Part shown: piece by piece, positions 6,862-14,475 of the stretch
Numbering within the stretch: the first letter of the stretch is position 1
Layout: every line of letters begins with the position of its first letter
Source of the DNA: a virus
Taxonomy: Duplodnaviria; Heunggongvirae; Uroviricota; Caudoviricetes
Virus record (IMG/VR): IMGVR_UViG_2630968342_000015
Reading direction: 5' to 3' (one strand)
DNA length: 14,640 bases
Notes under the pieces: model-generated
The model's input: the letters and a program-made list of their open reading frames with translations, nothing else
Databases searched by the model: none
What the model was told of the DNA's origin: nothing
Translations under genes and position numbers: made by a program

Positions 6862-6909
6862 TTGTTCGTGGTTGTTCCACGTTGTTCACTGACAGGATCG
6901 GCATATTTT
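6862..6909 (+). promoter_or_regulatory. Phased TTGTTC repeats (6862, 6872, 6882) with candidate -10 TATTTT (6904-6909); putative activator-dependent head-operon promoter
   Basis: TTTGTTCGTGG TTGTTCCACG TTGTTCACTG at exact 10-bp spacing. Third unit sits 16 bp upstream of TATTTT. 15-mer TTGTTCCACGTTGTT recurs exactly at 14375-14389. Confidence 0.4.
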
Positions 6910-11798: not shown

Positions 11799-13443
11799 GT
11801 ACGCAGAAGACGTAAAAACGGGCAAAATTCAGGCCTGTAAACGGTTAAAACAGGCCGTTAAACGGTACTTTTCGGACCTTAAAAGCCCCCTTTACACGTT
11901 CGATCGTGAGGTTGTGGATCGGTTTATTGCCTTTTCCAGGGTGTGCCCGCACGTAAAAGGGCCGATGCGTGGCAGACCCATTGAGCTGGAGCCGTGGCAG
12001 CAGTTCGCCTTTGCGTGCATCCTCGGCTTTAAGGTTAAGGCCACCGGACGGCGCAAATATACGAGCGCCTTTATCGAAGTGCCGCGCAAAAATGCTAAAT
12101 CAACGACCGCCGCGATTCTGGCTAACTGGTTTCTGATTATGGAGAACGGTCAGCAGGATATTTACACCGCAGCGGTGAGCCGTGACCAGGCGAGGATCGT
12201 ATTTGATGATGCGCGTCAGATGTGCATTTTATCCCGACCGTTACGCAGGCGGGTGAATATTCAGGCGCATAAGGTGATACACCCGAAAACCAACAGCCTG
12301 TTAAAGCCGCTGGCAGCAAAAGCGGCAACTATCGAGGGCACAAACCCCAGTCTTTCTATCGTGGACGAATACCACCTACACCCCGACAACGGCGTATATT
12401 CTGCGCTTGAACTGGGGATGGGGGCACGTCCCGAAGGGCTGTTATTTGCCATTACCACATCGGGAAGTAACGTCGTTTCAGCCTGTAAGCAGCATTATGA
12501 TTATTGCTGCCAGATCCTGGACGGCGAAGAGGTTAACGAATCGCTTTTTGTGCTGATTTACGAACTGGACGACGAAAACGAGGTTGATGATCCGGAGATG
12601 TGGATAAAGGCGAACCCTAATATCGATGTTTCCGTGGATCGTGAAAAACTGGCCTCAACCATTCAGAAAGCGCGGGGTATTCCGTCGCAATGGGTGGAGA
12701 TGATGACAAAGCGATTTAATATCTGGTGTCAGGGGACTACCCCGTGGATGGGTAATGGTGCATGGGCTGAGTGTGCCGGAACGTTCACGGAGGAAGATTT
12801 ACACGGTCAGGAGTGTTACGCGGGGCTGGACTTATCATCAACCAGCGATATTTCCAGCGTGTGCTATGCCTTTCCGGTCGGTAAAACCATTATGATGATT
12901 TCCCGTCATTATCTGCCGGAGTTCCAGCTACAGAACCCCGCCAATAAAAACCGCGCTGTCTATCGTCAGTGGGCTAAAGCAGGCTGGATACGCACAACGC
13001 CTGGCGACTGCATTGATTACGACCGGATCAGAGATGACATCATGCAGGACGCGGAGAAATTTAATATCAGGCTGGTGGGCTTTGATACGTGGAACGCCAC
13101 GCATCTCAGAACGCAATTACAGGGGGCAGGTTTTGAGGTGGAGCCGTTCCCGCAAACCTACCTCAGATTCAGTCCGGCGGCGAAATCGTTCGAAGTTTTT
13201 GTTAACCGCAGGGTGATTGTGCATCGTGGCGATCCGGTGTTGTCCTGGTCGATGAGTAACGTCGTGATGCAGAGTGACGCGAACGCCAATATCAAGCCGA
13301 ACAAGAAAAAATCACCGAACAAGATAGACCCGAGCGTGGCGGCGCTGATGGCGTTTGGTACATTCCAGGCAGAGCATGAGGATTTTGCTTTTGATATAAG
13401 CGACAGCCACCGCCAGAAACTGGAAGAATTTAGCGGGGTGTAA
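11782..13443 (+). CDS. terL: Terminase large subunit
   Basis: 553 aa. N-terminus MTAWNKYAEDVKTGKIQACKRL is typical of TerL. Apparent TTG start at 11782 with SD GAGGA (11772-11776), overlapping terS by 17 nt. Confidence 0.9.
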   Translation: MTAWNKYAEDVKTGKIQACKRLKQAVKRYFSDLKSPLYTFDREVVDRFIAFSRVCPHVKGPMRGRPIELEPWQQFAFACILGFKVKATGRRKYTSAFIEVPRKNAKSTTAAILANWFLIMENGQQDIYTAAVSRDQARIVFDDARQMCILSRPLRRRVNIQAHKVIHPKTNSLLKPLAAKAATIEGTNPSLSIVDEYHLHPDNGVYSALELGMGARPEGLLFAITTSGSNVVSACKQHYDYCCQILDGEEVNESLFVLIYELDDENEVDDPEMWIKANPNIDVSVDREKLASTIQKARGIPSQWVEMMTKRFNIWCQGTTPWMGNGAWAECAGTFTEEDLHGQECYAGLDLSSTSDISSVCYAFPVGKTIMMISRHYLPEFQLQNPANKNRAVYRQWAKAGWIRTTPGDCIDYDRIRDDIMQDAEKFNIRLVGFDTWNATHLRTQLQGAGFEVEPFPQTYLRFSPAAKSFEVFVNRRVIVHRGDPVLSWSMSNVVMQSDANANIKPNKKKSPNKIDPSVAALMAFGTFQAEHEDFAFDISDSHRQKLEEFSGV

Positions 13444-13456
13444 TGAGGTCAGCAGC

Positions 13457-13738
13457 ATGACAGAAGCCGAAATAACGGGATTAATCCGCCGCGTTGCCGG
13501 AATCAGCCAGCAGGCTGACGAACAGGCCACGCAGCCGGACAGCGTGACAGCCGAAAACTATGCGCGTGTTGTTGCTGAGGTGATGCGCCGTGATGGTATA
13601 GAACTTAATGGCGTGGATATGCGCAACATACGAACCAGAGTTCTTGAGTTGCTGGCCTACCGTCGCCGCGTGGAGATGTATCGGGAGAAGGAGAAAATAA
13701 CGTACCACTGGAAGAAGCCGGAGCGGTTGCGGCGGTAA
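13457..13738 (+). CDS. Hypothetical protein (93 aa), last gene of the element
   Basis: ATG 13457 with SD GAGG. No recognisable family. Confidence 0.5.
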   Translation: MTEAEITGLIRRVAGISQQADEQATQPDSVTAENYARVVAEVMRRDGIELNGVDMRNIRTRVLELLAYRRRVEMYREKEKITYHWKKPERLRR

Positions 13739-14030
13739 CTGGTTGATATTCCCGACGGACCAAAAATGGGTGGCTACATCCCTCGCTTCTGAGGACTGTT
13801 AACAAGCTGCCTGAAAGACAGTCACAAACTACGAAATTTTCGCAGTTTAATTAATGATCAGCTTAATCGCTAACCCGCTGATATTTTCGGAAACCTCAAT
13901 TTGAGGAAGTCGGCGCGGTAACTCGCTGAACTTTAAGCAAAGTGCAAAATTGCGCTTGCTGAATAATCATTATGATTACGCAGATGATTAAGGAATGACC
14001 GAAGGCGGAAATTCGCCTGTGGTTAATGGG

Positions 14031-14144
14031 GGAGTTGCAGATCTGCAACTCGACCATGAAACTACGGAAACTACCCGTAGTTTGGGTAGTAAGAGTAACA
14101 CCCAGATTTTGGGTCTTACTCGTGATACCCAAATTTGGGGTATC
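14031..14144. promoter_or_regulatory. Cluster of palindromes in the right noncoding arm
   Basis: Perfect 20-bp palindrome GAGTTGCAGATCTGCAACTC (14031-14050). 9-bp inverted repeat AAACTACGG / CCGTAGTTT (14059-14083). Two related palindromes ACCCAGATTTTGGGT (14100-14114) and GATACCCAAATTTGGGGTATC (14124-14144). Confidence 0.45.
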
Positions 14145-14361
14145 AGTGGCAACCATAACGACTTTCGTTACGGTTGATGCTTTTACCCCATTGGGGGAAA
14201 GGTATTACGATAATCATAACACCTACCGAACAGGTAAAGCCCACCAGCCTGATTAACGTTTAACCGGAAAAAAATTCCGGTAGGTGGGGATCCCCATATC
14301 GACATTAACGCCCCTCATGAATTGGTGCGCTTCCCCCTGGAAAGATGATCCGCCTGTATAT

Positions 14362-14457
14362 TTCTTGTGTCTATTTGTTCCACGTTGTTTCATACAGTGC
14401 ACCGAACGGTGTAGTCACTGGTGTAGTCATTTTGCGATTTTTGGCACTTTTTGCGGT
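14362..14457. repeat. Right-arm repeats near the junction: TTGTTCCACG TTGTTTCATA (14375-14394), tandem GGTGTAGTCA(C/T) (14408-14418, 14420-14430), TTTTGCG repeats
   Basis: Read directly. The 15-mer at 14375-14389 is identical to 6872-6886. Candidate integrase/excisionase arm-type sites. Confidence 0.4.
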
Positions 14458-14475
14458 GAAAATTATTTAATTAAA

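Follow-up and report, generated by a model that had tools for sequence, protein, structure and literature searches.

Close to the right end of a 14,640-nt viral sequence (the window, by which we mean the whole stretch analysed), several families of short direct repeats crowd into 14362-14457, and we asked what these repeats are for. A sequence-only reading had taken them for arm sites of an attachment (att) site, lying just inside an island end near position 14500 and bound by a tyrosine integrase. We conclude that 14362-14512 is probably the int-distal arm and core of the attachment site of a capsid-forming PICI (cf-PICI) inserted in tqsA, on which Int, IHF and AlpA would act together. The predictions of the att-arm reading that can be examined at the sequence level were all borne out: a core, an arm-binding Int domain, an alpA gene, a module present in both arms, an IHF consensus and an attP joint. 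The features are collected in Table 1.

Table 1. Features of the island and its attachment site, in window coordinates
Feature	Position	Strand	Remarks
Tyrosine integrase gene (int)	1-1218	+	window begins at codon 5; N-terminal Arm-DNA-bind_3 and catalytic domain (Pfam)
Five 10-bp-phased TTGTT units	1261-1310	-	CTTGTTCGTAGTTGTTCCGCATTGTTGCTCATTGTTGCACGTTGTATC on the minus strand; between int stop and alpA
AlpA-family winged-helix protein	1593-1781	+	PF05930, E 1.9e-17; candidate binder of the TTGTT arrays
Three phased units TTGTTCG, TTGTTCC, TTGTTCA	6862-6891	+	~240 bp upstream of the capsid gene
Three TTGTT-type units, 10-bp phase	14365-14394	+	TTGTGTC 14365, TTGTTCC 14375, TTGTTTC 14385; proposed AlpA sites
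Spacer CAGTGCACCGAAC	14395-14407	+	between array and 12-mers; attL arm counterpart TTGTGCAACGATC
Tandem 12-mers	14408-14431	+	GGTGTAGTCACT 14408-14419, GGTGTAGTCATT 14420-14431; proposed Int arm-type sites
T-runs	14430-14457	+	14430-33, 14438-42, 14448-52; ~9-10 bp apart
IHF consensus AATCAACGTGTTA (WATCAANNNNTTR)	14474-14486	+	A/T-rich tract before; 18-30 bp from core
Core ATAACAGCA	14504-14512	+	9 bp common to attL, attR and the empty tqsA site (attB); crossover inside
tqsA 5' fragment (host gene)	14513-14640	-	start codon 14640-14638; severed from the remainder by the island

The island and its junctions with tqsA

The window matches NZ_CP060083 (E. coli G1/2) at 100% identity, and its position 1 corresponds to position 2402 of the 33-kb locus that we call L001. 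The element is a cf-PICI-type satellite within tqsA, 14,708 bp from core to core. In the RefSeq annotation of the identical locus, the first genes encode the tyrosine integrase, an AlpA-type helix-turn-helix protein, an Icd-like protein, a primase, SSB and PerC; later genes encode the major capsid protein, prohead protease, portal, head closure and connector proteins, an HNH protein, TerS and TerL, and no tail or lysis genes are annotated. The int-alpA-primase order, a capsid-to-TerL set of its own and a size of ~15 kb are those of capsid-forming PICIs of the EcCIEDL933 type. The right end is found in ~192-208 of 5,426 complete E. coli genomes (~3.5-3.8%); in O157:H7 genomes it is 99.8% identical and also lies at tqsA. 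Just downstream of the primase gene are two sets of 10-11-bp tandem repeats, ACTGTTCACC x2.5 at 5251-5274 and GGTGAATAGTT x3 at 5380-5411; the units of the two sets are approximately reverse complements of each other and resemble replication-origin iterons.

Island-free genomes align to the window only from 14504 on, in agreement with the predicted junction near 14500. The sequence-only reading had proposed finding the core repeat by comparing both junctions with an empty site, and this comparison yields ATAACAGCA in attL (L001 2206-2214), attR and attB. The empty site reads GGGTTAAGAATAACAGCAATAAATAATG, attL reads GGGTTAAGAATAACAGCATTTTATCATT, and attR reads AGTTATATATAACAGCAATAAATAATG. A tRNA scan found no tRNA, and the target is a protein-coding gene. 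The 3' part of tqsA lies to the left of int (tqsA stretch, L001 1308-2213). This AI-2 transporter gene is split ~45 codons after its start, and the island does not restore it.

The joint form of the site can be seen in a metagenomic IMG/VR contig, L094 (11,098 nt), from a near-identical island with an Int 99.8% identical to that of the window. Its ends overlap exactly over 119 nt, and we therefore read it as circular. Across the joint the order is attR arm-ATAACAGCA-attL arm, the attP predicted from the two junctions. We take the contig (segments 1-330 and 10980-11098) for a classical PICI in circular or concatemeric form.

Within the core, the 7-bp overlap is probably AACAGCA (14506-14512), and TTTTATCA would be the conserved island-side core site. 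The model for this assignment is the island at roxA/phoQ (L003). Its attP, rebuilt from L003 17340-17370 and 4830-4860, has a perfect core, TGATAAAA-GGACATA-TTTTATCA, with 8-bp inverted repeats and a 7-bp spacer. On the island side of the core, TTTTATCA is kept in L001, L003 and L004 and is one base shorter in L073 (TTTATCA). Compared with the TGATAAAA/TTTTATCA pair of L003, the left core site here matches at just 5/8 positions, and both the core sites and the overlap are therefore assigned tentatively. Another island, L006 (reverse strand, ~9102), has type A arms (see below) and a different junction, GTTATGTATGTCAGCATTCC; L127, on the same contig, encodes a 99% identical Int. This island appears to use a second site, with a core, ATGTCAGCA, that has 7/9 bases of ATAACAGCA.

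A composite module in both arms

The phased units of the TTGTTC type that the sequence-only reading described are real; there are three, starting at 14365 and exactly 10 bp apart. What it saw as a tandem repeat at 14408-14430 is a pair of 12-mers ending at 14431, and the repeats, placed by it 50-140 bp inside the junction, measure 47-142 bp from the crossover core, within the ~200 bp in which att arm repeats are expected. The 12-mer GGTGTAGTCAYT has four exact copies in the 33 kb of L001, two in each att arm and none elsewhere, the distribution expected of a non-core arm motif. Within the window, exact GGTGTAGT occurs just at the two places in 14408-14431.

The int-proximal arm lies outside the window, directly upstream of int, and repeats the composite module without a change of orientation. 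There, CCTTGTTCCAGCTTGTTTCACGTTGTAGCCCTTTGTGCAACGATC is followed by two copies of GGTGTAGTCACT, the second ending 24 bp before the int start codon. An alignment of the arms gives a module of ~70 bp in direct orientation in both, with a spacer pattern, GTGCAnCGAnC, common to the two, and the elements of both arms all lie on one strand. Counted from the start of the core, the int-distal arm has its units at -138, -128 and -118, the 12-mers at -96 to -73 and the IHF consensus at -30 to -18, with the T-runs between the 12-mers and the IHF consensus. In the int-proximal arm, TGTTTCA occurs at +32 and +42, the units at +95, +105 and +115, the 12-mers at +137 to +160, and int begins at +184. A search ahead of int gave no consensus promoter. 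In the lambda convention, the int-distal arm, which is the one in attR, is called P. The earlier proposal of P'-type arm sites therefore stands as to the att arm and has its label inverted.

We compared 27 distinct int-distal arms from islands at tqsA, roxA/phoQ, allE/allC and other att sites. A search of genome contigs with the Int protein led to a single locus, and the relatives were taken from IMG/VR; GGTGTAGTNNNTGGTGTAGT gave 120 matches there, most of them unrelated coding repeats, which were removed by context. Identity to the window is 0.95 for the TTGT array plus spacer and 0.91 for the 12-mers; the upstream part has 0.78, the T-runs 0.84 and the core with the host flank ~0.55. The best-conserved block of the arm is 14362-14431.

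Could the repeats be chance or neutral low-complexity sequence, or part of an open frame of 70 codons in the window (14284-14496)? Some counts do lie near chance. Single TTGTT-type 8-mers (TTGTTYCA) are barely above it, with 8 matches versus 3.4 expected and 4 of 100 shuffles reaching 8, and the two copies of TTTTGCG, at 14430-14436 and 14449-14455, are not significant alone. Phased arrays and longer motifs, however, are far above chance: the island has 4 arrays of at least three units versus 0.035 expected (200 shuffles, maximum 2), and the 14-mer TTGTTCCACGTTGT, with up to two mismatches, has 7 matches versus 0.25 expected. The 12-mer is found in arms only, and the block is the best-conserved part of the arm. 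The open frame has no Pfam match and was rejected as a gene; since stop codons break it in most relatives, we regard the arm region as non-coding. This explanation is largely refuted, and we can practically dismiss it in favor of an att arm.

The T-runs deserve separate mention. The TTTTGCG repeats are present as the sequence-only reading gave them, and they do not hold up as a conserved motif: in relatives the GCG varies, and the T-tracts alone are kept. These T-runs could possibly form an intrinsic bend or a further protein site. Scanning the arm for sigma-70 promoters and terminators gave one weak promoter-like match on the minus strand, at chance level. An Rfam scan of 13400-14640 (E up to 1) found no match, and thus no known RNA family accounts for the region. 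Just inside the arm, non-coding sequence at 13990-14300 holds a string of at least 8 hairpins, with RNA minimum free energies of -130 (plus strand, z -8.1) and -133 kcal/mol (minus strand, z -10.6). It has no Rfam match and is partly kept in related islands at other att sites; a structured RNA, palindromic protein sites or terminators are the candidates.

Between the module and the core lies a consensus for a DNA-bending host factor, IHF, as expected of an att arm. The window has 2 matches to this consensus versus 0.63 expected. It is found at the same offset in 19/27 arms and with one mismatch in 7 more, and its four N positions vary freely. Preservation of the consensus while the N positions vary is the pattern expected of a protein site, and not of shared ancestry alone.

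Candidate sites for Int and AlpA

An att arm of this kind calls for a cognate integrase with a separate N-terminal arm-binding domain. Indeed, residues 8-95 of Int match PF13356 (Arm-DNA-bind_3, E 1.4e-18). PDB relatives are 3jtz and 3ju0, and a sheet with two helices is predicted.

There are two main variants of the 12-mer, type A (GGTGTAGTCACT/CATT; TCACT) and type B (GGTGTAGTTAAT/TCAAT; TTAAT). The type agrees between arms, A/A in L001, L094 and L126 and B/B in L003, L004, L073, L174 and L197. In the int-distal arm, the A/B change is limited to two positions per 12-mer, and the 48 and 18 bp that flank the 12-mers are identical between L001 and L004. Both arms vary in concert with Int residues 24-42. 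Type A 12-mers occur with Int residues S28 and K36-Y37-L38-K42 and type B with N28 and R36-H37-S38-L42, a match that holds even for Ints just 75% identical overall. It extends to the attR arms, 10-14 kb from int: the A-type 12-mer is present in 8/8 loci with the KYL signature, one of which (L143) has a variant second copy, TTATT, and the B-type in 12/12 loci with the RHS signature. Between L001 and L003, ~15 of the ~35 differences in Int fall in residues 1-42. In an AlphaFold model (mean pLDDT 72), strands 1 and 2 of the sheet contain residues 24-28 and 31-37, so that the type-specific substitutions in residues 1-42 would lie on predicted strands 1-2. Islands of types A and B do not differ in the helix-turn-helix of AlpA.

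This association is partly linkage, because the Int N-terminus is contiguous with the attL 12-mers and makes up a single variable cassette with them. The covariation also rests on few independent events, since just two motif-type switches are seen and the islands are related. Intermediate 12-mers occur in L143, L067 and L103. In a hybrid island (L144 10001-11227 plus L072, one contig, IMGVR_UViG_2859821903_000003), the 12-mers are type A in attL and type B in attR, and Int is type A in residues 1-55 and type B in the remainder. Either strict matching is therefore not required, or this island is a recent, possibly crippled, recombinant. Our best model is that the 12-mers would be the Int arm-type sites.

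The TTGTT-type units have a different distribution. They are head-to-tail repeats spaced about one helical turn apart beside the proposed Int arm sites, the arrangement of a directionality-factor array, and the island encodes a small winged-helix protein, AlpA (PDB relative, 8c3t), whose need in excision is known from the literature on related islands. EcCIMP1 excision needs alpA (PMC11773190), and so does EcCIEDL933 induction (10.1101/2022.09.08.507074). The arrays are not confined to att, however; besides those of the two arms, there is one in the int-alpA spacer and another before the capsid gene. The spacer array directly follows the int stop, ~290 bp upstream of alpA, and is a candidate site of AlpA autoregulation. 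A counterpart is present in every related island examined, among them L003, L004, L094, L126 and L174, with three units in L174. The array before the capsid gene is preceded by a terminator-like hairpin (6821-6838), and an array lies 220-241 bp upstream of the capsid gene in 28/30 capsid-homologue loci, including those with capsids only 64-75% identical. Because arrays also lie outside att, they look like sites of a regulator, probably AlpA, rather than of Int. The earlier reading of all the repeats as arm sites is thus corrected, in that the 12-mers are confined to the arms and the TTGTT arrays are not. Directionality-factor arrays usually lie in one arm only; here they are in both. T-runs precede a perfect 16-bp palindrome, CAGTATGCGCATACTG (1236-1251), which is located between the int stop codon and the TTGTT array and is kept in L003 and L004.

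Another family (L073/L197) bears on this assignment. Its AlpA is 64% identical with a differing helix-turn-helix, its TTGTT units are replaced by GTTCG at every location, and its 12-mers remain type B. The GTTCG pairs are found only in the near-core attL, the attL module, the int-alpA spacer and the attR arm. Assignment of the arrays to AlpA is not certain, since Int differs too between families with differing TTGTT units. Still, the simplest reading is that the TTGTT arrays would be AlpA boxes serving both att and promoters. AlpA of EcCICFT073 activates its own promoter and, when overexpressed, drives int-dependent replication of the island, described as excision plus replication (PMC6092414). 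In the same island, expression of Pint-lacZ is unchanged by AlpA (PMC6092414), which counts against the model, since the array adjoins int upstream.

Might the assignment be reversed, with the arrays as Int sites and AlpA on the 12-mers, or might Int alone read both? Both arms hold both motif classes, and Int differs between the L001 and L073 families, as do the TTGTT units. Other integrases, too, have arm-type sites made of short direct repeats in phase, among them the P' sites of KplE1 (PMC2951348). On the other hand, variation of the 12-mer follows residues of the Int sheet against an unchanged AlpA helix-turn-helix, the 12-mers are found in the arms only, and the arrays upstream of alpA and the capsid gene have no obvious role for an integrase. 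We consider such an exchange of roles unlikely and keep the 12-mers for Int and the arrays for AlpA.

The arrays at two non-att sites beside likely promoters raise another possibility, that the module serves mainly to control transcription, as an operator or promoter that depends on AlpA, and that its attR copy has no role in recombination. The attL copy, 24 bp upstream of int, would fit this, as KplE1 attL overlaps PintS (PMC2951348). But in the integrated island the attR copy faces a truncated host gene with no island gene downstream, and no sigma-70-like promoter was found on that strand. Moreover, the 12-mers join an array only at the two att arms, and the IHF consensus and its fixed spacing to the core are kept across islands with different cores. 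This makes a purely transcriptional role improbable, and we proceed with the module as part of an att arm.

From these patterns we infer which protein would bind which motif, IHF binding and bending, and a role in directionality. Int would be heterobivalent. Its catalytic and core-binding domains would act at the core, and its N-terminal domain would hold the tandem GGTGTAGTCAYT at 14408-14431 and the identical pair upstream of int. IHF at its consensus, together with the phased T-tracts, would bend the arm so that arm-bound Int reaches the core. AlpA may bind cooperatively, as filaments, on the arrays beside the 12-mers in both arms and so shape the excisive complex; through the same boxes ahead of alpA and the capsid operon, excision would be coupled to induction.

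We also tentatively put forward a broader proposal, to which we give somewhat less than an even chance. The TTGTTYC arrays would be the DNA boxes of the PICI master regulator AlpA, which would have two functions: at both arms it would be the directionality factor of excision, and at its own promoter and the capsid operon it would activate transcription or load an antiterminator. As part of the same proposal, the first ~42 residues of Int may form, with the 12-mers of the arms, an exchangeable specificity cassette of types A and B.

Comparison with characterised systems and significance

The closest characterised architecture is that of KplE1/HK620 (IntS, TorI), where attL overlaps the int promoter and contains five TorI sites that act cooperatively, along with arm-type sites for Int (PMC2951348, PMC3509656). 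In both, int adjoins attL and reads away from the core, and Int arm-type sites and a directionality-factor array, both candidates in our case, lie just upstream of int. KplE1 excision in vitro uses IHF, and an IHF consensus is present here; both systems have a small winged-helix directionality factor, in our case a candidate one, expressed apart from int. They differ in that KplE1 P' sites share TAAA, unlike the motifs here, and in that here a composite module occurs in both arms and the array motif at two non-att places. TorI and IntS repress PintS, whereas AlpA of EcCICFT073 is without effect on Pint (PMC6092414). The KplE1 target is a tRNA gene; the island described here lies inside protein-coding tqsA, which it disrupts.

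The general model is the lambda attP, which has P and P' arms with tandem Int arm-type sites, a Xis array and IHF sites. The island resembles it in its probably heterobivalent integrase with tandem arm repeats in both arms, here candidate arm-type sites, and in head-to-tail excisionase sites alongside and an IHF bend from arm to core, which are again candidates here. AGTCACT is common to the type A 12-mer and the lambda arm-type consensus C/AAGTCACTAT, a likeness that we treat as a lead only. Unlike in lambda, the arm domain of Int belongs to another Pfam family (PF13356), each of the two arms has a candidate excisionase array, and int is transcribed away from att. In the satellite phage P4, attP is served by Int and Vis, a member of the AlpA family, and repeats flank the core. 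The island likewise has a P4-like integrase that includes an arm-binding domain, a protein of the AlpA family with a need in excision known from related islands, and repeats around the core. The relationship of its Int and AlpA to those of P4 is only distant (PMC6092414).

Among PICIs, EcCIEDL933 and EcCICFT073 have the same layout of int, alpA, primase and capsid to TerL. Integration of EcCICFT073 was tested with an int-att segment on a thermosensitive plasmid (PMC6092414). In the papers on these two islands (10.1101/2022.09.08.507074; PMC6092414), the passages returned by an att-term text search concern attB usage and give no arm sites, AlpA boxes or IHF site. A full-text literature search for the motifs returned nothing relevant.

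An att arm with accessory sites is textbook biology, and this analysis is therefore of value for annotation and for the design of experiments and does not establish a new principle. PICIs carry virulence and defence genes among enterobacteria; the capsid-forming ones are a widespread class that was recognised recently. AlpA is pivotal to their induction, and the PICI papers that were text-searched, in the passages so returned, do not define AlpA targets or the anatomy of att. The analysis offers a testable att map for a cf-PICI, with a core, an IHF consensus, candidate Int arm sites and candidate AlpA boxes. The 12-mers and the Int N-terminus make up a natural cassette with which to probe or re-engineer arm specificity. 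The model predicts that AlpA boxes link excision, autoactivation of alpA and expression of the capsid operon. If this is true, a single factor triggered by the helper phage would couple excision of the island to its late gene expression.
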